Positions 3,112-21,523 of a stretch of 23,408 bases of DNA are shown in pieces. The stretch covers positions 1 through 23,408 of the forward strand of contig JAHQWL010000071.1 of the NCBI GenBank assembly GCA_029856155.1, given 5' to 3'. Numbering within the stretch: position 1 is the stretch's first letter; the number at the start of each line of letters is the position of its first letter. Origin of the DNA: Promethearchaeia archaeon (GTDB taxonomy: Archaea; Asgardarchaeota; Lokiarchaeia; Sigyniarchaeales; SOKP01). The position numbers were made by a program, and so were the translations under genes. A model generated the notes under the pieces. It made no database searches and had not been told where the DNA came from. It worked only from the letters and a program-made list of their open reading frames with translations.

Positions 3112-4845
3112 TTATTTCTGAATTGCCTCTAACAACTTTTCAATCTCAGCTTGGATGACTTCGGGCTTTTTCGCCGTTTGACCGGCTATAGCTAATTGGC
3201 GCTCTATAATAGGTCTGTGAAGTGTGTTCATCGCACAGAAGGGTACTTCGCGAACTTTGCTAGGATCCTCCGGATCGATGACTCCATAATGAACAAGACA
3301 TCTGCATACTCTATCGAGGTCGAAATTGTAAGCATCTTGAAAATGCATCGATGACACCATTAGGTTGCGGTCGTTGAAGAATTTCCCCGCCGATTTTAAG
3401 TTTGGAGCCATTACTAACCGAGCGAATGCTTGATATGTTTTACTGGTAAGAATCTTTTCTGGACTTTTAATATATCGTGCTGCTCCAGCAAAGAAATATG
3501 CCTTCATAACTTGCCGATAACCTAAGCTAGTCATATCATCAACAAAATTTCCAATTTTGGAAGCTAGTTGCCCAAAATCGTCTAAGTTAATACCTTTCAA
3601 TAATCCAGTAGGTTTTGGGACTTCTTGTTTCTCTACCATATCCCAAACTTGATTAGCCCATCGAATCAATCCTTCCGCTTTAAAAAAGTTTTCGATAGGC
3701 TCCCACTCATCTTTTTCATTAATAACACATATCGTTGCAAATCCACAATCGCTATGGCTCGTCATGCTGAATGGTGGCATATCGTCAAACCAAGCTAGCA
3801 ATTTTGTAAACTTCGCTGTGAATGCAATTGGGTAAAACTTTTTTACTGAGCCATTTGTATACTTATTAATTGCTTCTTTTAGATCAGAAGTAGTGTATCT
3901 AATATCCATTAATTCTTCGAAGCTAATACGTCCTGTTAACGAGACGGGTTGGAAAATAAGGCCTGATACTACATCACAATTATTTTTTGCAAAATCTAAA
4001 ATTTTACCAATTTCATGGTCATTTACCCCTTTAGCGATTACTGGAACTAACATAACACCATAAAAACCAAGCTTTCGAGCATGTTCAATGACTCTCTGTT
4101 TAAGTGGCCATAAATTAACGCCTCTAATCTTTTTCCATACTTCAGGATTATCTGTGGCATCAAATTGGAGATATACTGCATCCATTCCAGCCTCCATACA
4201 TTCTTTCATAAATTCTATTGATTTACCAAATCGAACACCGTTAGTAGTAACCATGACTTCTGTAAAACCTAATTCATGTCCTTTACGAATTATTTTTGGT
4301 AGATCATCTCTTACTGTAGGTTCTCCTCCAGATAGCTGGAGTAAAACCGCAGAAATAGGTTTCATGGATCTAAAATGCTCCATAATTTGTACAAGTTGTT
4401 CGAAAGTTGGTTCAACAACATAACCTGCAGCACTTGCATTCGCAAAACAAATAGGACAAGCTAGATTACAGCGATTTGTGATATCTATTAAACATATATT
4501 TGGAGCGCTTTTATGATTAGTACATAAACCACAATCATATGGACATCCTTTATCTACTTCTTTAATTCCCGATGATACATATTCGGGTTTAGTAGAATTA
4601 TTTACAGTAGAACCAATTTCATTAGTAATATTTGATTGCCATTTATATTCTTCAGGATTAATTGATAATTTATCTTTGAAGTCTCCGTGATCTTTACAAT
4701 GTTTTCGCATCATAACCCAATTTGTTTCTGGATCTACGTAAATTTCAGCCGGAAGATGTTTCATACATTCTGGACAAATACTGGTAGTTGTTCGGATAAT
4801 CTCAACGTCATCCTTTTGATTAGTTTGAATCTCTAACTCTGTCAT
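3112..4845 (-). CDS. tes: Tetraether lipid synthase (Tes / GDGT-MAS, MJ0619 family radical SAM enzyme)
   Basis: N-terminal CPEC...C..HG metal site, CPYDCGLC..H auxiliary cluster motif, radical SAM CNLACPIC, GGEPT, FQPVS..GR, H.DCG, and C-terminal MHFQDAYNFD..RV.RC.VHY...VPFC..N. Confidence 0.88.
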   Translation of the reverse strand: MTELEIQTNQKDDVEIIRTTTSICPECMKHLPAEIYVDPETNWVMMRKHCKDHGDFKDKLSINPEEYKWQSNITNEIGSTVNNSTKPEYVSSGIKEVDKGCPYDCGLCTNHKSAPNICLIDITNRCNLACPICFANASAAGYVVEPTFEQLVQIMEHFRSMKPISAVLLQLSGGEPTVRDDLPKIIRKGHELGFTEVMVTTNGVRFGKSIEFMKECMEAGMDAVYLQFDATDNPEVWKKIRGVNLWPLKQRVIEHARKLGFYGVMLVPVIAKGVNDHEIGKILDFAKNNCDVVSGLIFQPVSLTGRISFEELMDIRYTTSDLKEAINKYTNGSVKKFYPIAFTAKFTKLLAWFDDMPPFSMTSHSDCGFATICVINEKDEWEPIENFFKAEGLIRWANQVWDMVEKQEVPKPTGLLKGINLDDFGQLASKIGNFVDDMTSLGYRQVMKAYFFAGAARYIKSPEKILTSKTYQAFARLVMAPNLKSAGKFFNDRNLMVSSMHFQDAYNFDLDRVCRCLVHYGVIDPEDPSKVREVPFCAMNTLHRPIIERQLAIAGQTAKKPEVIQAEIEKLLEAIQK

Positions 4846-5189
4846 AAGAATCTATACTCTGTTGTATTTTGTTTAAAATAGTATTTTAATAAATAGTTAT
4901 TCTATTAATTAAACTTTTAAATCATTTAAATCTTATAATAATCTCTATAGTATTATCGATATTATTAAAAAAGATTAAAAATCTTAATAAAATTGAAAAT
5001 TAAGTTTCATATTTTAATCTTTTTAAATGGAAAATATAACCATTAACTTTAAATTCTAAATTGCACAAAAAATTGGAAATTAATTATATTTTAATTCTTA
5101 ATTATCTTAAATTAATTCTAAAATTTCTTTAATTACTCCTTTTTAATGTATTTATTATTTATTAGGGAATAGATTTTTAAAAGAAAGGG

Positions 5190-5310
5190 TGACTCCTAGC
5201 CTACGAGACGCAAATAAGCGTCAAAAATAAAATAGGGGGAGGAGGGCGAAATCAGAGTGTAAGAATTTACACTACCAAAAGACAAAAATCCAGGGTGTAG
5301 GCAGGAGTCA
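5190..5310. ncRNA. Candidate structured non-coding RNA (~122 nt, closed multi-stem fold), family unknown
   Basis: GC-enriched island in a very AT-rich gap. Ends pair: TGACTCCT-A-GCCTAC (5190-5204) with GTAGGC-AGGAGTCA (5297-5310), 14 bp with one bulge. Internal hairpins GACGC-aaataa-GCGTC (5207-5222) and AGTGTAA-gaat-TTACACT (5256-5273). Confidence 0.6.
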
Positions 5311-5335
5311 TATTTTTAATTTTTTTTTATTTTTT
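5311..5335 (+). terminator. Oligo-T tract directly after the structured element (possible archaeal terminator)
   Basis: TATTTTTAATTTTTTTTTATTTTTT immediately 3' of the closing stem. Confidence 0.4.
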
Positions 5336-5538
5336 ATCGAATTTAAAAATTTTTATTGAATCGATATTTATGTCTGATAAATTTCAATTTTTATCTTAAG
5401 TTTATATATCATTAGGGATTTATAAATCAAATTGTTGGTGTTAGTAGGTTTTTATTATTATAAATAATTAGTTGATAATAGAAGATAAAAGTAAAAAGAG
5501 TTTTTTTAATTATACTACATAATATACTTTATTCAATC

Positions 5539-5931
5539 ATGACATACATCAATAAAGAACAAACAGTAGGAAGACCAGAACCAGAATTTAAAATTGATAT
5601 CTTTACAGTATTTTGGTTAATTGTAGGATTTATCGTATCTTGGTTAAATATGTTGGTTATTTTAACCTCAATGGAGATTTGGTCTTATTTAACAATAATT
5701 TTTACGACAATTATCCCTACGGTCATTATTGCTCTAAAGAATCGGGTCTGGGGGTATGGGTACTTATTCGGATTTTCGAGTGCTGGAATTCCTTTCTCCT
5801 TTTTCAAGCCCCCCTATGGAGATCTTTTTATTGGATGGTATACTTTTGCGACATCTTTATTTATTTTTGTAATATTATGGTTAATTTTTTGGAAAGCCTG
5901 GAGATCCTTATCATCAATTAAACAAGTATAA
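5539..5931 (+). CDS. Small integral membrane protein (~4 TM), function unknown
   Basis: 130 aa with four hydrophobic segments, ATG start and an upstream TATA-like TTTAATTATA. Confidence 0.75.
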   Translation: MTYINKEQTVGRPEPEFKIDIFTVFWLIVGFIVSWLNMLVILTSMEIWSYLTIIFTTIIPTVIIALKNRVWGYGYLFGFSSAGIPFSFFKPPYGDLFIGWYTFATSLFIFVILWLIFWKAWRSLSSIKQV

Positions 5932-11570: not shown

Positions 11571-12302
11571 GTGTTTAAAAAAGATATAGATCATTTCAGG
11601 TCTGAACAACCATATAGATTTATGGGACAAGGACCACCTGACCATCATGGATCTCCACATCACCCTCCTTTTGGTGGTATTCCACCCTTTGGTTCATTTC
11701 CACAATTTCTAAAGGGTTCTTTCAAACCTCCTTTACCAATAGGTAGAGAATCATTTCAAGAAATAAGAGATTTTATAGTTTTATTAATTATTTCTGAGTA
11801 TCCTAATGGGGTTACTGGCTATCAATTGCAAGACAAATATAATTTTCCAAGAGGAACCCTAATAAGAACCCTACAGGAATTAGAGGATAAGAAATATTTA
11901 ATATCTAAAGAGGAAATAATAGAAGGACGAGCAAATAAATTCTTTATAACGACGGAACTAGGAAGAAAATTTCTAGAAGAATTGAAACTGAAATGGGCAA
12001 ATTTATTTAGCATGATGTCAGAGATATCACCCTCTAAAGGGTTAAGATTAATTTTATTAGAAAAAATAAAAGAATTTGATTCGAAAGATGATGCAATTGA
12101 TTTTTTTAGGGGGTTAAGATCTTGGATGAAGGGAATGCTTCAGCAAATAGAAAAGAGAATTGAAAATTTTAAAGACAGTAAAGAGGATTTAGACAGACTA
12201 ATTGAGGAAATTGACAAGATGGATGCCTTAGATAAAGATAAAATAATAGAAATGGTTGAAGAATCAATCAAGAAAAGAGAAGAATATGAAAACAATGATT
12301 AA
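11571..12302 (+). CDS. PadR-family winged-helix transcriptional regulator
   Basis: FIVLLIISE...VTGYQL......RGTL.RTL.ELE...YL......GR..KFF..TELGR..L..L..KW, plus a C-terminal helical domain and a Pro/His/Gly-rich N-terminal arm. GTG start. Confidence 0.85.
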   Translation: MFKKDIDHFRSEQPYRFMGQGPPDHHGSPHHPPFGGIPPFGSFPQFLKGSFKPPLPIGRESFQEIRDFIVLLIISEYPNGVTGYQLQDKYNFPRGTLIRTLQELEDKKYLISKEEIIEGRANKFFITTELGRKFLEELKLKWANLFSMMSEISPSKGLRLILLEKIKEFDSKDDAIDFFRGLRSWMKGMLQQIEKRIENFKDSKEDLDRLIEEIDKMDALDKDKIIEMVEESIKKREEYENND

Positions 12303-12318
12303 GGACGAGGAAAAAACA

Positions 12319-13422
12319 ATGATGAAAATTCAAGAAAAAGCAATTCCAAAAAAACCAATTATTGACAGGTCTGAAGTAGTTATCAAACTAGAAAATTTAA
12401 CAAAGAAATTTGGTAATTTAACTGCTGTTAAAAATATAAACCTAGAAGTTTATAGAGGGGAAACTATAGGATTAGTTGGTCCTAATGGGGCAGGGAAAAC
12501 CACAACAATTAAAATGATTGCGAAAATACTAAGGCCAAATTCTGGGAGAATTCTTATTAGGACTAATCATAGCGAATTACAAGATTTAGCAAAAATATCA
12601 AGAACTATTAGCCAGATGGGATTTTTAATAGATATTCCCGCTTTTTACAATATGACTGCTTATCAATTATTAAGATATTTCGCAAACATCCAAAATTACC
12701 CTAAAGATAAAATCGATCAAAGAATAGATGAGCTTTTAGAACGCTTCAAGCTCTCTGAATGGAAATTTGAACCCGTAAAAAATTTTTCTAAAGGAATGAC
12801 TCAGAAGATAGGAATTATTCAAGCAATTATCCATGATCCAGAGATAATAATATTAGATGAACCCCAAACTGGCTTGGATCCATTAGCACGTGTTGAAATA
12901 CGGAAATATATCCGAGAACTTCAATCACAAGGAAAAACAATATTTGTTGCTTCCCATATGTTGTATGAAATATCAGAAGTATGTGACAAAATCGCTTTAA
13001 TTAATTATGGTTCTATAATTGGGTTTGATACAGTAGAGAATTTAGCTCTTACGTTAAAGACTAGTGAATTAAATTGCGAATTACTAAATTCAATTAATGC
13101 AAGTGAATTAGAAAGGTTAATAGATCGGTTAGCTGAAAGCCTTGATCCCTATCTAGACAAGAACTTAGATCCCATGATTTCGAAAATTCCAGTGAAGTAT
13201 TATCCTGAACAACAAGGGTTTAAAATTTTTTATGATGGAAAAAATGAATCAAAAGGAGAAATTTTGAAGATTCTTGTAAAGGAATTCGAATCAGATTTCA
13301 CAGTTGTCTCATTTACTCAGCCAAAAACATCTCTCCTAGAAAGAGTTTATGCAGAAATGGTAAAAGACAATGATGCAAAAAAGAAAAGTATATTAAGTGG
13401 AGGTTTAGTGAAAAATGAATAA
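12319..13422 (+). CDS. ABC-2 type exporter ATP-binding protein
   Basis: Walker A GPNGAGKTT, signature FSKGM, Walker B ILDEP, H-loop ASH. Start uncertain: ATG 12319 follows GAGG; ATGs at 12286 and 12295 are also in frame. Confidence 0.93.
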   Translation: MMKIQEKAIPKKPIIDRSEVVIKLENLTKKFGNLTAVKNINLEVYRGETIGLVGPNGAGKTTTIKMIAKILRPNSGRILIRTNHSELQDLAKISRTISQMGFLIDIPAFYNMTAYQLLRYFANIQNYPKDKIDQRIDELLERFKLSEWKFEPVKNFSKGMTQKIGIIQAIIHDPEIIILDEPQTGLDPLARVEIRKYIRELQSQGKTIFVASHMLYEISEVCDKIALINYGSIIGFDTVENLALTLKTSELNCELLNSINASELERLIDRLAESLDPYLDKNLDPMISKIPVKYYPEQQGFKIFYDGKNESKGEILKILVKEFESDFTVVSFTQPKTSLLERVYAEMVKDNDAKKKSILSGGLVKNE

Positions 13423-14269
13423 TACAAAAGAAAATCTTACTGGAATAAAGCCAATTTTATACACCATTGTATTTGAAATAAAAAAACAAAGAAAGAAATT
13501 TTATTTCTTTTCAGTAATTGCAATCATTATTGCGGTTTTATTGGGGTATATCCTGCAATTAATCCCTAGTTTCCTTCTATCAGATACACAAGCAGAGTTC
13601 TTTAATACTGGTCTACAATTTATTTCATTCTTAACTCTATTTGCGGCGTGTTTGTTTTTCTCAGGTATAATTTGTTCTGAATTTGATAAAAAAACGGGTT
13701 TTATTGTTTTTCCTAAAATAAACAAATATAAATTGATCCTAGGAAAATATTTTGGAAATTTATCTCTAGTAGTTGCAATTGTTACAATTTACTATTTTAT
13801 CTTAGGATTTCTAGGATTTTTCTATTATGGTGGACCAATTAACATTCGATTCTTTTATTCATATGGTGTTGCGATATTATATGTAATAGCATTAAGTAGC
13901 TTTGTAACATTTTTTAGCTCGTTTATGAGAAGTGTAAATCTTACAATCATATCAACCCTAATAATTCTCCTTATTGGATTTACTATCGTTGATCAGATTG
14001 TGACATTGATATTTGCGGAAAATTTTGAACCTTTATACTCTTTAGCATATTTAGGTTCTCTCATAACTGGGATACTCGAATATCCTTTTCCAGATCCGAG
14101 ATTTTCTGAATTTTCATTTAGTGGTATGGGACCCGGCGGTATGGGAGGGGATTTTACGTTCGGCCAATGGGTAACGCCTAGTATTGCAGCGGGAATTACA
14201 TTACTACTTGTTTTTATAGTTGTTTATTTTGTATTAGCAGCATATTTATTCAAACGGAGGCAATTATAG
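13415..14269 (+). CDS. ABC-2 type permease
   Basis: About six TM segments, ICSEFDKKTG..V.P..NKY.LILGKY motif, C-terminal F.RRQL. 8-nt overlap with the ATPase stop. Confidence 0.9.
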   Translation: MNNTKENLTGIKPILYTIVFEIKKQRKKFYFFSVIAIIIAVLLGYILQLIPSFLLSDTQAEFFNTGLQFISFLTLFAACLFFSGIICSEFDKKTGFIVFPKINKYKLILGKYFGNLSLVVAIVTIYYFILGFLGFFYYGGPINIRFFYSYGVAILYVIALSSFVTFFSSFMRSVNLTIISTLIILLIGFTIVDQIVTLIFAENFEPLYSLAYLGSLITGILEYPFPDPRFSEFSFSGMGPGGMGGDFTFGQWVTPSIAAGITLLLVFIVVYFVLAAYLFKRRQL

Positions 14270-14270
14270 A

Positions 14271-15245
14271 ATGAAGAAAAATACTAAAATTAGCATAATT
14301 GGAGTATCGCTTCTCGGCATAATTTTCTTGGGAATGTTTTCAACTATTAGTATTGCTAATGGGAATTATAATATTGCTTTAACTAAAGGTACCGAGATGT
14401 TTACAGTTGCTCAGTATGATGAAGCTGCTTGGAAAACCACAGTTAATTCATCCACGACACCTTCAAATTGGTTCGAAGGAGATTCAAATCATACTGGAGC
14501 GAAAAGTAAATACACAATTAAAGGCTGGAATTATGTTACTTGGGAATTTTATGATGTATTTGTTTCATTATTTTTACCAGCAATTTTCGAATTTGAAGAA
14601 CTTTTCCTATTATTAGGGGTAATGAATGGTCTAGGATATAATGAAACCACTATAAACACTAATTACACAAATAGCTACAATCTATGGGTTGGTCTACGCG
14701 CTGTATGGAATTTTACGATTGGAAGTTTTGAAGAAGACCCTACAAATGCAAATGATCCACTTTTAATATTCCAGAATCCAACGGATTTCGATGACATTCT
14801 TAATAGCTATAATAATTTATCAGCAGAACTAAATAGCCTTTTCGCGATTATATCTCCAAAAATTAGCTTTCCAATCTTAGAACCAGATGAATTTTTATGG
14901 TTATTTATCTTCAAAGGACTCACATTAGGTACTCCCTTTAGTTCATATTTAGAAGAACTAATTACAGCACTCGATTGTAAAAATGCAACGGTTAGCAATA
15001 ATGTTCTTACAATAAACCGGACTGGCGAATCAGATTATACTGTAGAAATTGCTTATGGTTCTGAAGGGATAATGTCTTCATTTGTCGTAAAAGATGTTGG
15101 GAGTAGTATAATATACCAGATTATTAGTAAAAATTCAGATTTGGTCTTTTATACGATAATCATCATATTAATAATTTGTATTGGAAGCTTAGGTGCTTAT
15201 TTAATATTCAGAAAACGGAAGATAAACAGAATAAGAAATAAATAA
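14271..15245 (+). CDS. Secreted, C-terminally membrane-anchored glycoprotein
   Basis: Signal peptide (MKKNTK + hydrophobic stretch), 8 N-x-S/T sequons, C-terminal TM helix and basic tail RKRK. Confidence 0.82.
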   Translation: MKKNTKISIIGVSLLGIIFLGMFSTISIANGNYNIALTKGTEMFTVAQYDEAAWKTTVNSSTTPSNWFEGDSNHTGAKSKYTIKGWNYVTWEFYDVFVSLFLPAIFEFEELFLLLGVMNGLGYNETTINTNYTNSYNLWVGLRAVWNFTIGSFEEDPTNANDPLLIFQNPTDFDDILNSYNNLSAELNSLFAIISPKISFPILEPDEFLWLFIFKGLTLGTPFSSYLEELITALDCKNATVSNNVLTINRTGESDYTVEIAYGSEGIMSSFVVKDVGSSIIYQIISKNSDLVFYTIIIILIICIGSLGAYLIFRKRKINRIRNK

Positions 15246-15251
15246 TTCCAA

Positions 15252-15264
15252 TTTTTTTTTTTTT
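15252..15264 (+). terminator. T13 terminator ending the first transcription unit of the ABC cluster
   Basis: Thirteen T residues starting 7 nt after the stop at 15245. Confidence 0.6.
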
Positions 15265-15333
15265 AATTATAAAAAAGTTAAAACCATTATTAGAAAAGTA
15301 TTATTGTAATGAAAAATTAACCTATGAGAGAAT

Positions 15334-16656
15334 ATGACTGAAAATATAATCGAAGTAAAGAATCTAACAAAGATCTATGAACAAGGGAATGTATTAGCTG
15401 CAGATGACATTAATATCAGTATAAAGAAAGGTGAAATTTTTGCTTTATTAGGTCCTAATGGTGCAGGGAAAACTACTACAATTAGTATTTTAGCTACATT
15501 ATTATCTTCTACAAATGGTAAAGCATATGTAAATAATTATGACGTAAGTAAAGATCCCGGTAAAGTTAGAAAAAGTATTGGTATTGTTTTTCAAGAACCA
15601 TCCTCAGATGGGGATATGACAGGTTGGGAGAATTTAGAATTACATGCCGTTCTCTATGGGATGCCTAAAAAGGAGAGACAAGATAAAATACGTGAAGTAT
15701 TAAAATTAGTGGATCTTGATGATAAAGCAGATATTTTTGTTAAAAATTATTCTGGGGGGATGAAAAGACGCTTAGAAATCGCACGTGGATTGATTCATGA
15801 ACCAAAAGTTCTTTTTTTGGATGAACCCACTTTAGGATTAGATCCTCAAACACGCAGAAAAATATGGGAAAAAATCAAAGAATTAAATCAGAGCGACTCA
15901 AAAATGACAATCTTAATCACTACCCATTACATGGAAGAAGCGGATGAATTAGCAGATAGAATATGTATCATGGACCATGGAAAGATTATTGCAATGGACA
16001 CCTCTGAAAACCTTAAAAACCAATTATCTGGAGATGTCATAGATATTAAATTTGAAAATCTTGATGAACCCTTTAAGATTTCTATAGTGATAAGGCAAGT
16101 TAAAGAGATTCCGGGAGTAAAAAATGTTACTATAGGTTCATCTGAAGACCAACAAGATATAATGCCTAATATACAATTACCTAAAGGTATGCCCAATGTC
16201 GATCCTGCAATGATACAAGCAAGGATACGAGAAACTATGTCAGACCCTAAGAAATTGATAGAGGCTTGGAAAAGAATGCCGATGTCAATTGGAATGTTTC
16301 TAAATGCTCCGTTGGTAATGAAAAAAAAAATCGCAAACATGTTTGATAACAAACTATTGGAAGAAGTTCCAGATAATATTAAACAAGAACTTATAAAGAT
16401 AAAGAAGGGAGAATATGAAGAAGAAGAGGAATTAGATCCTTCCATATCGATTTCTTGCGAAAATGGTGGAAAACAATTACCATTGATTATTCAAAAAATC
16501 AGTGATAACAAATTAAATATAAAAACAGTGCATATGCATCAGCCAACCTTGGAAGATGTATTCCTACATTATGTAGGAACTGCAATAAGAGAGGAATCTT
16601 CAAATTTTTCAAAAGATGTAAAAAAAATGATTCAAATGAGGCAATTAAGGAAGTGA
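15334..16656 (+). CDS. DrrA-type ABC ATP-binding protein with ~100-aa insertion in the C-terminal domain
   Basis: GPNGAGKTT, YSGGMKRRLEIARGL, FLDEPTLGLDPQTR, TTHYMEEAD, C-terminal PTLEDVFL. Confidence 0.94.
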   Translation: MTENIIEVKNLTKIYEQGNVLAADDINISIKKGEIFALLGPNGAGKTTTISILATLLSSTNGKAYVNNYDVSKDPGKVRKSIGIVFQEPSSDGDMTGWENLELHAVLYGMPKKERQDKIREVLKLVDLDDKADIFVKNYSGGMKRRLEIARGLIHEPKVLFLDEPTLGLDPQTRRKIWEKIKELNQSDSKMTILITTHYMEEADELADRICIMDHGKIIAMDTSENLKNQLSGDVIDIKFENLDEPFKISIVIRQVKEIPGVKNVTIGSSEDQQDIMPNIQLPKGMPNVDPAMIQARIRETMSDPKKLIEAWKRMPMSIGMFLNAPLVMKKKIANMFDNKLLEEVPDNIKQELIKIKKGEYEEEEELDPSISISCENGGKQLPLIIQKISDNKLNIKTVHMHQPTLEDVFLHYVGTAIREESSNFSKDVKKMIQMRQLRK

Positions 16657-16662
16657 TGATAA

Positions 16663-17448
16663 ATGTCTGATTTAAGTAATGTAAAAACAAAAGTAAATTA
16701 TAACGTAGTATGGATATTAGCAAAAAGAGAGTTAATGAGTTTCTGGAGAAACAAATCAAGAGTAATTTCATCAATAGCTCAAGGTTTATTATTTCTTTTC
16801 GTATTTGGTGCAGGATTCTCTCAAATCGCTATAGTTATAGATGGCATTGCCGTTAGTTCACGGGCCTTTAGCGGTTCAGGAATCGCAGCAATGGTTATTT
16901 TATTTACGGGTATATTTGGTGGAATGTCAATTTTCAGAGATAAAATGTTTGGGTTTATGAAGGAGTTAATGGTAGCACCGGTAAGTCGTAGCACTTTGAT
17001 GTTAGGAAGAACAGTAGGAGTAGCTTTACAAACAATGTTACAAGTTGTAATTATGATTGCATTAGGTGTAGCATTTGGATATTTTGGTTATGACCTTAGT
17101 TTAATTTGGCGTGTAATGTTAATAGTACCAGTAGCTTTTTTAGCAAGCCTTGGAATTGTAGGGATAGGGTTAACAATAAGTACACGCTTAAGCGATATGC
17201 AATCTTTTGGATTAATACAGACATTCATAGTAATGCCAATGATGTGGCTATCGGGAGCTTTAATACCACTTCCTCCACAGATAACGATGTTTAATCCCTT
17301 CACATATAGTGTAGATTTGTTCCGATTTGTATTATTAGGTGTTTCCTACTTTCCATTTTGGCTTGATCTACTAATTACAGTTGGTTTTGGAACTGCATTA
17401 ATATTAATCGGAGCCCAGTCTTTTAATAAAATGGAAATAAGCCAATAA
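16663..17448 (+). CDS. DrrB-type ABC-2 permease
   Basis: RD..FGFMKEL.VAPVSR, LSGA..P, NPFTY.VD..R, about six TM segments. Confidence 0.92.
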   Translation: MSDLSNVKTKVNYNVVWILAKRELMSFWRNKSRVISSIAQGLLFLFVFGAGFSQIAIVIDGIAVSSRAFSGSGIAAMVILFTGIFGGMSIFRDKMFGFMKELMVAPVSRSTLMLGRTVGVALQTMLQVVIMIALGVAFGYFGYDLSLIWRVMLIVPVAFLASLGIVGIGLTISTRLSDMQSFGLIQTFIVMPMMWLSGALIPLPPQITMFNPFTYSVDLFRFVLLGVSYFPFWLDLLITVGFGTALILIGAQSFNKMEISQ

Positions 17449-17452
17449 TTAA

Positions 17453-17475
17453 TTTTTTTTGTATAAATTTTTTTT
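17453..17475 (+). terminator. Oligo-T tracts after the DrrB-type permease
   Basis: A T8 tract and a second T-run directly downstream of the stop. Confidence 0.5.
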
Positions 17476-17526
17476 AAATAGATCGTTATTAAACTTGAAT
17501 TAAAATTAATAGCAGCTAGTTGTAAA

Positions 17527-19290
17527 ATGAAATCTGCTCGAATGATATTGAATTATTGGTCAAAATCGAAAAGAGCATTTATCTTACAAATCATATATTT
17601 ATCACTTTCAACAATTTTTAGTACAATAATTCCCATTTTTATAGGGAGAATGGTTGGATTATTGAATCCAAATCTTCCAAGCTTTAATATTATAGCATTC
17701 ATATTGTATTTTTCAAGTATATTACTATGTGGATTATTTACATATATTTTCAATAGAGTTGCTCGGCTTCAAGGAGCTGAAGTTTCATCAAGAGCTTTAT
17801 ATTATCTACGTGATGATATTAGTAATGCAATTTATCGCCAAACTTTTTCATATTTTGATAAAACTGAAACAGGGCAATTAATTTCAAGAGCTACCAGTGA
17901 TATTGAAGAAACTCGACAAATTTTTGGTATGGGTTTAATTTTAGGTTTTCAATCAATTCTTCAGATTAGTGGGATTATTATTGGCTTTATTGCTTTTAGT
18001 TTTGATTTATCAATTATCTTAGTTTCAGCAATTTTTATTTCTCTTTTATTATCATATTATATTGCAAAGAAATTGAAACCAATCTTCCTAGAAACAAGAA
18101 ATAGCTTTGGTGATTTAACTACAACAATAAGGGAAAACATTGTTGGTGCTCAAGTAGTACGGATATTTAGTACTCAAATTAAGGAATCTCAAAAATTTAA
18201 AGAAAATAATACTAGATTCTATAAAGCCAGTGTTAATTCTGTAAAATATAATTCACTTTATATGCCCTCTACTTATATAATTATCGGTGTAATGACAATT
18301 TCTTCATTATTTATAGGGGGTATTAGGTTTATAAATGGAACAATGGATTTAGACACAGTTGTAACTCTTCTTTCATATATAGCATCACTAGGGTTTCCTT
18401 TAATGATGTTAGGCCAAATTATGTTGGTATATATTCAAGCTGATGCCGCACTTACTAGGGTAAGAGATATTTTAGATTCCAATCCAGAAATAAATGATCT
18501 TCCAAATGCATCTCCTATCTCTAATTTAAAAGGCGATATTGATTTTGATAATGTTTGCTTTGAATATACACCTGATCATCGTATTTTAAAGAATATAACA
18601 TTTAAAATTCCAGGTGGAAAAAAACTTGCTATTTTAGGTACTACAGGTTCTGGTAAATCTACTATAATAAATTTAATCCCTCGGTTCTACGAGGTGAACG
18701 AAGGAACCATTAGAATTGATCAAAAAGATATAAGAAATTATTTACTAACTGATTTACGTAAAAATATTGGTATTGTATCACAAGAAACTTTTCTATTCAA
18801 TAAAACGATAGCAGAAAATATTGCGTATGGCAAAGAGGATGCTTCTAAAGATGAAATAATTGAAGTTGCTAAAATTGCTGATTTACATGATTTTATCATA
18901 AATTTACCTAAAGGATATGACTCTATTGTGGGAGAAAGAGGAACACGTTTGTCAGGAGGCCAAAAACAACGACTATCAATAGCTAGAGCTCTTTTAACAC
19001 AACCAAAGATCTTAATTCTTGATGACAGTACTAGTTCCGTCGATGTAGAAACCGAATATAAAATACAACAAGCCTTAACAAGAATAATGAAAGGCATAAC
19101 TTCTATTATTATCACACAGAGAATCTCGACCATTAGAGGAGTGGATTATATTTTAATTTTAGATAGGGGTCGTGTCGTAGGCTTTGGGACTCATAATGAA
19201 TTAATTAAATCAAATGTCTTATATAAACAAATTTATACAACTTTATATCAAAAACAAAAGTCAAAAAGTCGAGTTGGAGAAGGAACATAA
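17527..19290 (+). CDS. Heterodimeric ABC exporter, TM287/TmrB-like subunit (degenerate catalytic residues)
   Basis: TMD+NBD. GTTGSGKST, LSGGQ, Walker B LDDSTS (D replaces the catalytic E), switch ITQR (Q replaces H). Confidence 0.93.
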   Translation: MKSARMILNYWSKSKRAFILQIIYLSLSTIFSTIIPIFIGRMVGLLNPNLPSFNIIAFILYFSSILLCGLFTYIFNRVARLQGAEVSSRALYYLRDDISNAIYRQTFSYFDKTETGQLISRATSDIEETRQIFGMGLILGFQSILQISGIIIGFIAFSFDLSIILVSAIFISLLLSYYIAKKLKPIFLETRNSFGDLTTTIRENIVGAQVVRIFSTQIKESQKFKENNTRFYKASVNSVKYNSLYMPSTYIIIGVMTISSLFIGGIRFINGTMDLDTVVTLLSYIASLGFPLMMLGQIMLVYIQADAALTRVRDILDSNPEINDLPNASPISNLKGDIDFDNVCFEYTPDHRILKNITFKIPGGKKLAILGTTGSGKSTIINLIPRFYEVNEGTIRIDQKDIRNYLLTDLRKNIGIVSQETFLFNKTIAENIAYGKEDASKDEIIEVAKIADLHDFIINLPKGYDSIVGERGTRLSGGQKQRLSIARALLTQPKILILDDSTSSVDVETEYKIQQALTRIMKGITSIIITQRISTIRGVDYILILDRGRVVGFGTHNELIKSNVLYKQIYTTLYQKQKSKSRVGEGT

Positions 19291-19306
19291 TTAGGAACCT
19301 ATAAGT

Positions 19307-21523
19307 ATGAGTAATAATAAATATGAAAATGATGATGAGGAAAGAGAAGAAATAATAAAACCAAGCGCAAGTACTCGTCAACGTTTTATGTTAGAAGGGG
19401 ACAAATCGAAACTAGATCATCCAAGAAAAGAATTATGGAGATGGTTAATTTCATATTTAAAACCTCAAAAATTAGAATTCTTCCTGTACTTTATCTTTCT
19501 TTTGGTGGCAACTGTAATTTCCGCGTTAAGCCCAATTTTTTCTGCAAATATAATTGACAGAGGTATTGTCACGAAAAATACCTATTATATTGTTATAATG
19601 AGTGGAATTTTTCTAATATTAGTTTTAATTATGTCGATCACTAATTATTTTGCATTGTATGGGATGGGGAAAATATCTCAAAAAGTGACTTATCAAATTA
19701 GAAATGATCTTTTTTTTAAACTACAAGATATGTCTTTAAATTATTTTGATAAAAGATCTTCGGGACAAATAATATCTATTTTGACAAACGATGTTACTTT
19801 ACTTAATCAATTAGTCGGAGGACAATTCGTTCAAATTATAACGAGTATGGTTTCGATTGGATTAACTGTCATTTTTATGTTCTTCCTCAATGTGGGGTTA
19901 GCTTTAATTAGTCTGATAGCTTTTCCTATATTTTTTATATTTACTCGATTTTTCAAAAAAGTTGCTACTTTATTATTTAAAGAGGAAAGAAGAACCATAG
20001 GGAAAGTCACTTCTTCAATACAGGAAAATATTGAGGGCGCAAAAGTAGTGAAAGCATATGGGCAAGAAAAACGAGCCTCTATTGAATTTGATCAAGCAAA
20101 TACTGCAAATTATAAAATTATGGTTAAGATCCGAAATTATATGGCAACCATTTTTCCTTTAATCAATCTTACAACAACAATTATTACAGCAACCATTTTA
20201 TTAGTAGGAGGCTTTGTTTCATCTGGTAATATTTCATTTTTCGGGATGGTTGTTTCAGTAGGGGTCTTAAGTGCATTTATCACGATTTTAGGACAATTTT
20301 TTAGACCATTTATGACTTTAATGCAAATTCAAAATGTGATCGAATCTGCTCTTGCAGCTAGTGATCGAATTTATTCGTTATTAGAAGAAGAAGTTGAAAT
20401 CCCTGATATAAAGAATCCAATATTACTTGAAAAAATAAATGGTACTATTGAATTTGATAATGTGAGCTTTGGTTATATACTTAATAACGAAAGAGGGAGA
20501 AATGGTTCCAAGAAACAAAGATTAGTGGAGTCTGATAAAGTTGATGATACTATAACTTCTAAAACCCTTCTAGAGATGGTTAAATTTTTAGAACAGCTAT
20601 TAAGTTCTAAAACAAATCTTCAGCAGAGAAGCAGTTTTAGTGGAGAGGGAGGGGGAATGATTAGTAATGAAAGGGGAAAAAAGTCACCTCAAACTATTTT
20701 GGAAACACTTGCCAAAATATCTATACCACCCGAGATAAATGAAAGAATCCCAAAAATAGTAAAAGATGCAATTAAAGAGCAAAAAATACTCTTTCAACAT
20801 ATAGAATCAAAGGGTTTTGTATTAAAAGATCTCTCTTTTAAAATTCCAGAAGGAATAACATTAGCAATCGTGGGGGAAACTGGGGTAGGTAAAACAACAT
20901 TAATTAAATTAATTGCTCGATTTTATGATGTAAATAAGGGAAAGATGCTTTTAGATGGCGTTGATATACTAAAGCTTAAGAAAAAAGATTTAAGAGATTT
21001 AATCGGAATTGTCCCACAAGAAGCATTTTTATTTACAGGAACTATTCGAGAAAATATACTATATGGATATAATACCCTTACACCAGAACTTGAAGAAAAG
21101 ATGATAGAAGTCTCAAAGTTTTTAGGACTTCATAATTTTATTGATGCTTTATATAAAAATTATGATACTAAGTTAAAAGAAAATGGTAGTAATATTTCAA
21201 TTGGACAACGACAATTGATTGCTTTTGCTCGTGCTTTAATAACCGATCCAAAGATTTTAATATTAGATGAGGCAACATCCTCTGTAGATCCTTATACGGA
21301 AACTTTAATTCAGGATGCTTTGAACAAAGCACGTAAAGGGCGCACAACTATTATTATTGCACATCGTCTTTCAACTATTAAAAATGCTGATCATATAATA
21401 GTATTAAATGCTGATAAGAAAGGAATAATAGAACAAGGAAATCATGAACAGTTAATTGATTTAAACGGAAAATATAAGCGTCTTTTAGAAATGCAACATA
21501 GAGAAATTGAATTTCGAGATTAA
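19307..21523 (+). CDS. Heterodimeric ABC exporter, TM288/TmrA-like subunit with ~110-aa NBD insertion
   Basis: TMD+NBD. GETGVGKTT, degenerate signature ISIGQ, consensus LDEATS and IAHRL. Confidence 0.93.
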   Translation: MSNNKYENDDEEREEIIKPSASTRQRFMLEGDKSKLDHPRKELWRWLISYLKPQKLEFFLYFIFLLVATVISALSPIFSANIIDRGIVTKNTYYIVIMSGIFLILVLIMSITNYFALYGMGKISQKVTYQIRNDLFFKLQDMSLNYFDKRSSGQIISILTNDVTLLNQLVGGQFVQIITSMVSIGLTVIFMFFLNVGLALISLIAFPIFFIFTRFFKKVATLLFKEERRTIGKVTSSIQENIEGAKVVKAYGQEKRASIEFDQANTANYKIMVKIRNYMATIFPLINLTTTIITATILLVGGFVSSGNISFFGMVVSVGVLSAFITILGQFFRPFMTLMQIQNVIESALAASDRIYSLLEEEVEIPDIKNPILLEKINGTIEFDNVSFGYILNNERGRNGSKKQRLVESDKVDDTITSKTLLEMVKFLEQLLSSKTNLQQRSSFSGEGGGMISNERGKKSPQTILETLAKISIPPEINERIPKIVKDAIKEQKILFQHIESKGFVLKDLSFKIPEGITLAIVGETGVGKTTLIKLIARFYDVNKGKMLLDGVDILKLKKKDLRDLIGIVPQEAFLFTGTIRENILYGYNTLTPELEEKMIEVSKFLGLHNFIDALYKNYDTKLKENGSNISIGQRQLIAFARALITDPKILILDEATSSVDPYTETLIQDALNKARKGRTTIIIAHRLSTIKNADHIIVLNADKKGIIEQGNHEQLIDLNGKYKRLLEMQHREIEFRD

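Follow-up and report, generated by a model that had tools for sequence, protein, structure and literature searches.

A predicted multicopy structured RNA family with a near-invariant U-rich core in two families of Lokiarchaeia

We describe a predicted RNA gene on the minus strand of a 23,408-nt stretch of Lokiarchaeial DNA (the window, which is contig C70 of a 4.1-Mb genome with 30.0% G+C and 97% completeness). On sequence and covariation evidence, the element at positions 5189-5311 is assigned to a structured RNA family that occurs in multiple copies in two families of Lokiarchaeia and lies outside every library family tested. As to its role, our best explanation is that the RNA serves an Sm-like ring (SmAP/Lsm) as scaffold or decoy, a reading that we advance tentatively and rate just short of an even call. 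A preliminary description of this DNA had proposed an undescribed Asgard small RNA, possibly bound by SmAP; an undescribed, conserved and covarying RNA of Lokiarchaeia is what was found, and the question of the partner is taken up with the core below. Of the outcomes named there as grounds for rejection, those that were checked did not occur: Rfam gave no match, homologues are numerous and covary, and target-site duplications are absent. The multicopy state and the viral copy go beyond that description.

Position and anatomy of the element

The element lies in a 693-nt gap of ∼20% G+C (20.1%) that separates a Tes-like radical SAM gene on the minus strand from a gene on the plus strand encoding a 130-aa protein (Table 1). 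The former, a Tes-like tetraether lipid synthase gene, scores slightly below the NCBIfam cut-off; among relatives of the 130-aa membrane protein, the majority of informative records carry the name Promethearchaeota (Lokiarchaeia). Elsewhere in the window, positions 11571-21523 hold a series of ABC transporter genes with a weak PadR-like regulator at its head. No tRNA or tmRNA was found within the window.

Table 1. Predicted features of the element and the genes beside it, in window coordinates.
Feature	Position	Strand	Basis or remark
Tes-like radical SAM gene (neighbour, outside the RNA)	3112-4845	minus	NF045702, 436 bits; NCBIfam cut-off 450
3' tail	5179-5189	minus	family pattern (A/U)CC(C/U)UUU; probably terminator or processed end
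Predicted RNA gene: stem-closed three-part junction and short 3' tail	5183-5311	minus	structure, covariation, strand, selection
P1 closing helix, 3' arm	5190-5204	minus	one bulged base at 5198
Hairpin SL-C, 5 bp	5207-5222	minus	covarying; missing in some divergent copies
U-rich linker before SL-C	5223-5234	minus	overlaps the non-conserved second heptamer; pairs with upstream leader in a subset of copies
C-rich linker with CCUCC	5235-5246	minus	variable
Second conserved word UGAUUU, after SL-A	5247-5255	minus	kept throughout the MK-D1 family; present in most host-family copies
Hairpin SL-A, 7 bp	5256-5273	minus	always directly 3' of core; sequence free, pairing kept
Near-invariant U-rich core, includes conserved AUUUUUG (5283-5289)	5274-5293	minus	family-wide minimum UUUUGUCUUUU(U)GG
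P1 closing helix, 5' arm	5297-5310	minus	conserved A(U/A)G boundary just before
A-rich leader	5321-5337	minus	degenerate in window copy
TATA-like box, candidate promoter	5340-5349	minus	consensus match only; contains TTTAAA
BRE/TATA-like motif pointing toward the RNA	5381-5397	minus	variable distance, many syntenic orthologues
130-aa hydrophobic protein gene (neighbour, outside the RNA)	5539-5931	plus	no known family

The GC-enriched island of the preliminary description is present, at 123 nt rather than the 122 nt given there, with 43.9% G+C. Its minimum free energy was -40.7 kcal/mol on the plus strand and -41.1 kcal/mol on the minus strand (z scores of -6.9 and -7.6), and none of 200 shuffles folded as well. 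The closing stem described earlier was recovered on folding, with 14 bp and a bulge, as were the two hairpins of 5 and 7 bp, and both AUUUUUG heptamers start where they had been placed, at 5222 and 5283. As paired Sm-like sites, the two heptamers did not hold up, in that only the word at 5283-5289 is conserved and that at 5222-5228 is not. The former occurred in 185 and the latter in 32 of 189 copies that had been selected on part of the core; in a set of 68 copies selected with the covariance model, the counts were 63 and 7. Two heptamers fall together in 0.12% of 123-nt tiles of the genome, for a motif chosen after the fact.

The core sits inside the loop closed by P1, a closed multiloop. 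For it the energy model gives a weak hairpin of 4 bp around a U4 loop, in which GUCU is unpaired with a probability of 0.17-0.29 and the U tracts are open, and the U-rich core may not be single-stranded in this model. A 4-bp core hairpin with a U4 loop can be folded in both host families by different routes, with GGAU 5' of GUCU in one and 3' of it in the other (window 5274-5293 and one further locus). The end of the core (window 5274-5277) reads UGGU, or UGGA in the MK-D1 type, and is complementary to the NCCA end of a tRNA in the manner of T-box bulges. In place of the C-rich linker, the MK-D1 family has a hairpin, SL-B, and in some copies the linker is enlarged by inserts.

In ∼48 of 164 non-redundant copies, the A-rich leader is complementary to the U-rich linker at 5223-5234. 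Where present, it lies 15-50 nt before P1, co-varies with the linker in several lineages, and starts ∼26-30 nt after the peak of TATA-like words; the pairing energy was -11.0 kcal/mol, versus -8.2 and -9.5 kcal/mol for controls. With the leader included, the order leader-P1-core-linker-SL-C-P1 is an HDV-like nested topology, and a catalytic or self-processing RNA would fit the invariant bases at a multi-way junction, the free helices, the dispersed copies (one of them virus-borne), and a pairing that tracks sequence changes and beats its controls. We nevertheless regard catalysis as improbable: the pairing is found in fewer than one third of copies, the junction for a catalytic C is 2 nt long and variable, and no Rfam ribozyme matched. 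U-rich cores are unusual for ribozymes.

Distribution, conservation and strand

BLAST gave best matches of 85-98% identity for the majority of genomes in the genus, and the same pair of genes usually flanks them. Among 24 syntenic orthologues the mean identity was 92% for the element, 58-63% for the flanks and 47% for four-fold sites of tes, the last comparison resting on few sites per pair; on these sequences, purifying selection on the element is strongly indicated. Of 126 genomes from the Lokiarchaeia family of the host, 119 contain the element by the covariance model, at 1-19 copies each, and a model built from the MK-D1 form alone detected it in 11 of 14 sister-family genomes. Note that related genomes in these counts are non-independent samples. 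Two cultured strains are carriers, Promethearchaeum syntrophicum MK-D1 (4-5 copies) and Ca. Lokiarchaeum ossiferum Loki-B35 (3-4 copies). These two and Ca. Harpocratesius repetitus have a second form with one extra hairpin. Because the MK-D1-form model also detects host-family copies, on the U-rich strand, the two forms belong together; UUUUGUCUUUU(U)GG is the sole sequence common to both host families. In metagenomes, ∼75 of 80 exact matches to a 21-nt core had the whole structure. One sister-family genome has, on a 1.8-kb contig, a copy of the host-family type, which would represent contamination or transfer.

Beyond the two families, the model gave weak matches in other Asgard groups (E no better than 4e-4), and the ones inspected were located within ORFs. 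Convincing copies were not found in the other Lokiarchaeia or Asgard genomes searched, and the exact core occurred at chance level in non-carrier Lokiarchaeia (9 places versus 21 for the control). Against Rfam 15 there was no gathering-score match in the window, the element included, and below that score only chance-level matches (E 0.3-7); the MK-D1, Loki-B35 and H. repetitus copies likewise had no Rfam match. No description of the element was found in the literature library searched, which includes few subscription papers.

All three helices covary. In a plain alignment, 12 of 21 predicted pairs covaried; among 81 metagenome copies, in an alignment fitted to the model, two-sided changes were seen at all 26 pairs and 91% of cells were paired, whereas slid controls gave 32-41% and none of 500 shuffles reached the score. 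For the MK-D1 type, SL-A and SL-C were 100% paired in a plain MAFFT alignment. In long forms, extra hairpins are inserted in the linker after SL-A (five loci) or between P1 and the core (three loci), and these mark positions that tolerate expansion.

The window's genome has three copies, the others being at C103:71371-71518 (plus) and C103:37936-38079 (minus), and one of these two is entirely without the C-rich linker. One genome has 18-19 copies, some of them arranged as tandem pairs at a spacing of 290 nt and some one core U short. Copies from one genome generally cluster together, and part of the paralogy is older (19 label changes versus 47 when shuffled, with rough support from few alignment columns), in what would be a birth-and-death pattern.

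Dispersal of this kind, at 1-19 copies with lineage-specific expansions, degenerate copies and a viral copy, is also what a selfish non-autonomous element would produce, MITE or SINE-like, with the paired ends and the core as its mobilisation signal. A target-site duplication signal is absent, however (4.7 versus 4.4 nt); terminal stems vary between paralogues with pairing kept; the tes-linked copy has stayed in place across several genera under strong selection; no reverse transcriptase was found in the host genome; and duplicates take in upstream promoter-like DNA. We consider this origin quite unlikely. A MITE in particular was rejected, as the ends covary freely and there are no fixed terminal repeats.

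The preliminary description had left the strand open. The minus (U-rich) strand is probably the functional one, on account of wobble bias, the extents of duplicates and TATA-like words. In-helix mismatches were scored as G.U on the minus strand versus G.U on the plus strand, with ratios of 58:10 and 33:12 in two alignments, or 37:9 and 21:8 when distinct contexts were counted. Note that these alignments came from a plus-strand model, yet favour minus. Recent duplicates have 60-250 nt in common 5' of the U-rich strand and often end at its 3' end. TATA-like words are enriched 5' of that strand, with no sharp promoter distance among copies, and the TTTAAA that had been singled out 31-36 nt upstream does not correspond to a TATA fixed at that distance across the family. 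Two other strand tests gave little separation: whole-molecule energies were flat (35:25), and a loose alignment of the arms was weak (distinct contexts 41:26, p 0.09). The stricter stacked-pair test was used for the strand call in place of both. The length of the U-run after P1 does not distinguish the strands, and a sigma-70 scan, a method not suited to archaea, gave chance counts. From the wobble bias, the duplicates, the TATA-like words and the tail pattern, we consider it very likely that the RNA is transcribed.

Copies occur in 69 gene contexts with no orientation bias, and no Pfam family is present in more than 2 of 101 neighbours. Since these contexts are unrelated, a stand-alone RNA is probable and a cis-regulatory role unlikely. 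A riboswitch-like leader of tes or of the membrane-protein gene would account for the position of the window copy on the tes strand, 345 nt upstream of tes, for a tes synteny kept in ∼40 genomes, and for the alternative leader pairing; most copies, however, adjoin unrelated genes in any orientation at up to 1 kb, and a U tail directly follows P1, and we hold this reading to be very improbable. The same tes-RNA-membrane gene locus, of Lokiarchaeial type, is present in DATKTW010000179.1, which is labelled Nanopelagicaceae bacterium and is probably mis-binned.

Known RNA classes and the U-rich core

Candidate classes were compared one at a time. The core resembles spliceosomal Sm sites in its AUUUUUG, and the host has LSM genes; as in U1, U2, U4 and U5, one fixed U-rich word immediately precedes a stem-loop, and the core is flanked by P1 and the covarying SL-A, as Sm-site stem-loop flanking requires. 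In contrast to Sm-class snRNAs, the site is enclosed by an end-to-end helix and there are two U tracts; in addition, no guide or splicing motif was found, the host is archaeal, and Rfam gave no match. The strict Sm consensus, PuAU4-6GPu (PMC3710371), occurs in 3 of 128 copies, and the relaxed form with the last purine dropped in 112 of 128. With the strict consensus so rare and the core inside a closed multiloop, membership in the Sm class was rejected.

Y RNAs are similar in size (∼100-130 nt), paired ends, pyrimidine-rich interior, U tail and presence in several copies. They differ in that the P1 bulge of the element is not conserved and its conservation is in the loop, not the stem; a TROVE/Ro60 gene was found in 0 of 151 genomes of the class, and this class was rejected. 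Vault RNAs also match in size, paired ends, variable centre and several copies, and were rejected because the vault domain was found in 0 of 74 searched genomes of the two carrier families (a search in which no positive control matched) and Rfam gave no match. A vault-domain protein (PF01505, over the cut-off, in a 561-aa frame) is present in one genome of a non-carrier Lokiarchaeia family (G058:C19:7043-7168). Dictyostelid Class I RNAs have a closing stem with an adjacent fixed motif. They form a multicopy family restricted to one lineage, in which structure and sequence motifs are conserved, and were identified with a covariance model (PMC7919456). The present element is like them in all of these respects; they are, however, eukaryotic and shorter, and the analogy is of design only, sequence having been compared via Rfam alone.

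Further classes were rejected as follows. lokiSECIS is likewise a structured RNA of Lokiarchaeia, with an AUGA/GA core, a 9-bp stem and an A-rich loop (PMC4989117); the element has no such core with its stem and loop and is not tied to selenoprotein genes. tRNA-Sec is present in the host genome. There was no match to RNase P RNA, and the true RNase P RNA is on contig C47. For a C/D or H/ACA rRNA guide, the longest Watson-Crick run was 9 nt and energies were within those of shuffles, in a comparison with three 23S and one 16S rRNA (the host's own 16S is not in the assembly). A telomerase or DRT-type template RNA was rejected since there is no RVT_1 in the element's own 97% complete genome and there are no tandem core repeats. 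For a small peptide gene, frames were distributed 53/69/30 and 82 of 234 copies lacked AUG; for a BHB-excised (circular) RNA, a comparison across 234 copies gave 15 motifs versus 16 in mirror image, the only one of note being a relaxed motif in the viral copy.

Cuckoo RNAs and other CCUCC anti-Shine-Dalgarno sRNAs share with the element a multicopy state and, in the window copy, the CCUCCUCCC tract. The tract lies outside the hairpin loops and is not family-wide, however, and the class was rejected; CCUCC, which had been raised as an anti-Shine-Dalgarno sequence, occurs in 31 of 68 diverse copies and gives way to a hairpin in the MK-D1 family. The same counts bear on a snRNA-like guide RNP, cf. 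U7 and cuckoo RNAs, in which the core would be an Sm-type assembly site and the SL-A/SL-C linker would pair with targets such as GGAGG ribosome-binding sites. Such an RNP would be consistent with a fixed U-rich site ahead of a hairpin, with a variable, pyrimidine-rich open linker that differs among paralogues, and with the resemblance of the core to the non-canonical U7 site AAUUUGUCUAG, UUUGUCU being common to both (PMC12360213). We judge a guide function unlikely, given that fewer than half of the diverse copies have CCUCC, that the MK-D1 family folds the linker into a hairpin, and that significant complements of the linker were not found in its own genome or in the rRNAs compared.

For the scaffold or decoy reading, the argument starts from the core. 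Helices of free sequence surround a fixed word, which for this reason is taken as a binding site. The core has no long complement in its own genome or in the rRNAs compared, and because there is also no kept reading frame and no reverse transcriptase or product repeat, binding of a protein is what remains; we think a protein-binding role for the core likely. Four LSM genes are present in the host genome, and by eye three of them show the usual uridine-pocket motifs. Rings of SmAP bind single strands that are rich in U (PMC3710371), and SmAP is therefore the leading candidate. SmAP as the partner is possible, though we would put it somewhat below an even chance. LSM genes are no less present in those Lokiarchaeia that gave no copy of the RNA, and their co-occurrence with it therefore says nothing. 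In the structural model, a preformed ring cannot thread onto a core in a closed loop; a ring would have to assemble on the closed loop.

As we envisage it, the element would be a stand-alone non-coding RNA of ∼125-150 nt, read from the minus strand and belonging to the multicopy family of the two Lokiarchaeia families, in which P1, SL-A, an optional SL-B and SL-C would form a frame of free sequence that displays one fixed U-rich word beside SL-A. The word would be a protein-binding site, most likely for the host SmAP/Lsm ring, and the RNA would act as scaffold or decoy. By titrating an Sm-like protein, it would leave copy number free to vary. Note that the likelihoods given for this reading and for its alternatives are separate estimates, not shares of one.

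All support for the scaffold or decoy reading, Sm likeness excepted, applies equally to a stand-alone RNP RNA with a non-Sm partner, be it another RNA-binding protein, RNA polymerase, the ribosome, or A-rich tails in a U.A-U triple helix; in the MK-D1 type there are also three U tracts around the junction. No candidate for such a partner emerged, Ro60 and vault protein were not found in carriers, and leader and core are out of triple-helix register (by eye). We consider a non-Sm partner doubtful, if still a serious option.

A viral copy and wider meaning

A complete virus or mobile element of 224,826 bp, IMGVR_UViG_3300029288_000001, carries a full copy at 102445-102592. Its termini are direct repeats, and it encodes six tRNAs and a Promethearchaeota-like RadA; by gene similarity its host would be one of the Promethearchaeota. 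No LSM gene was found in it. The copy lies a few bases past the stop of one ORF and ∼30 nt ahead of the next, and its P1 has a relaxed bulge-helix-bulge at the base. Other viral pattern matches were without the structure. Under the scaffold or decoy reading, a virus with its own copy would gain from titration. A bolder form, in which the element would be an archaeal counterpart of Sm-class snRNPs, with SmAP paralogues assembling on the U-rich site and the virus having captured it to hijack or titrate the ring, seems to us a long shot.

To our knowledge, Asgard archaea have so far yielded almost no lineage-specific non-coding RNAs. The predicted family is near-universal in two Lokiarchaeia families, is conserved far above silent sites, reaches up to 19 copies, and is present in a large virus. 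The targets of Asgard Sm-like proteins bear on how snRNPs arose. For one of the two cultured strains, RNA-seq has been made and was analysed for coding genes only (PMC7015854). Because both strains carry copies, the expression of the RNA, its ends and its protein partner are directly testable.
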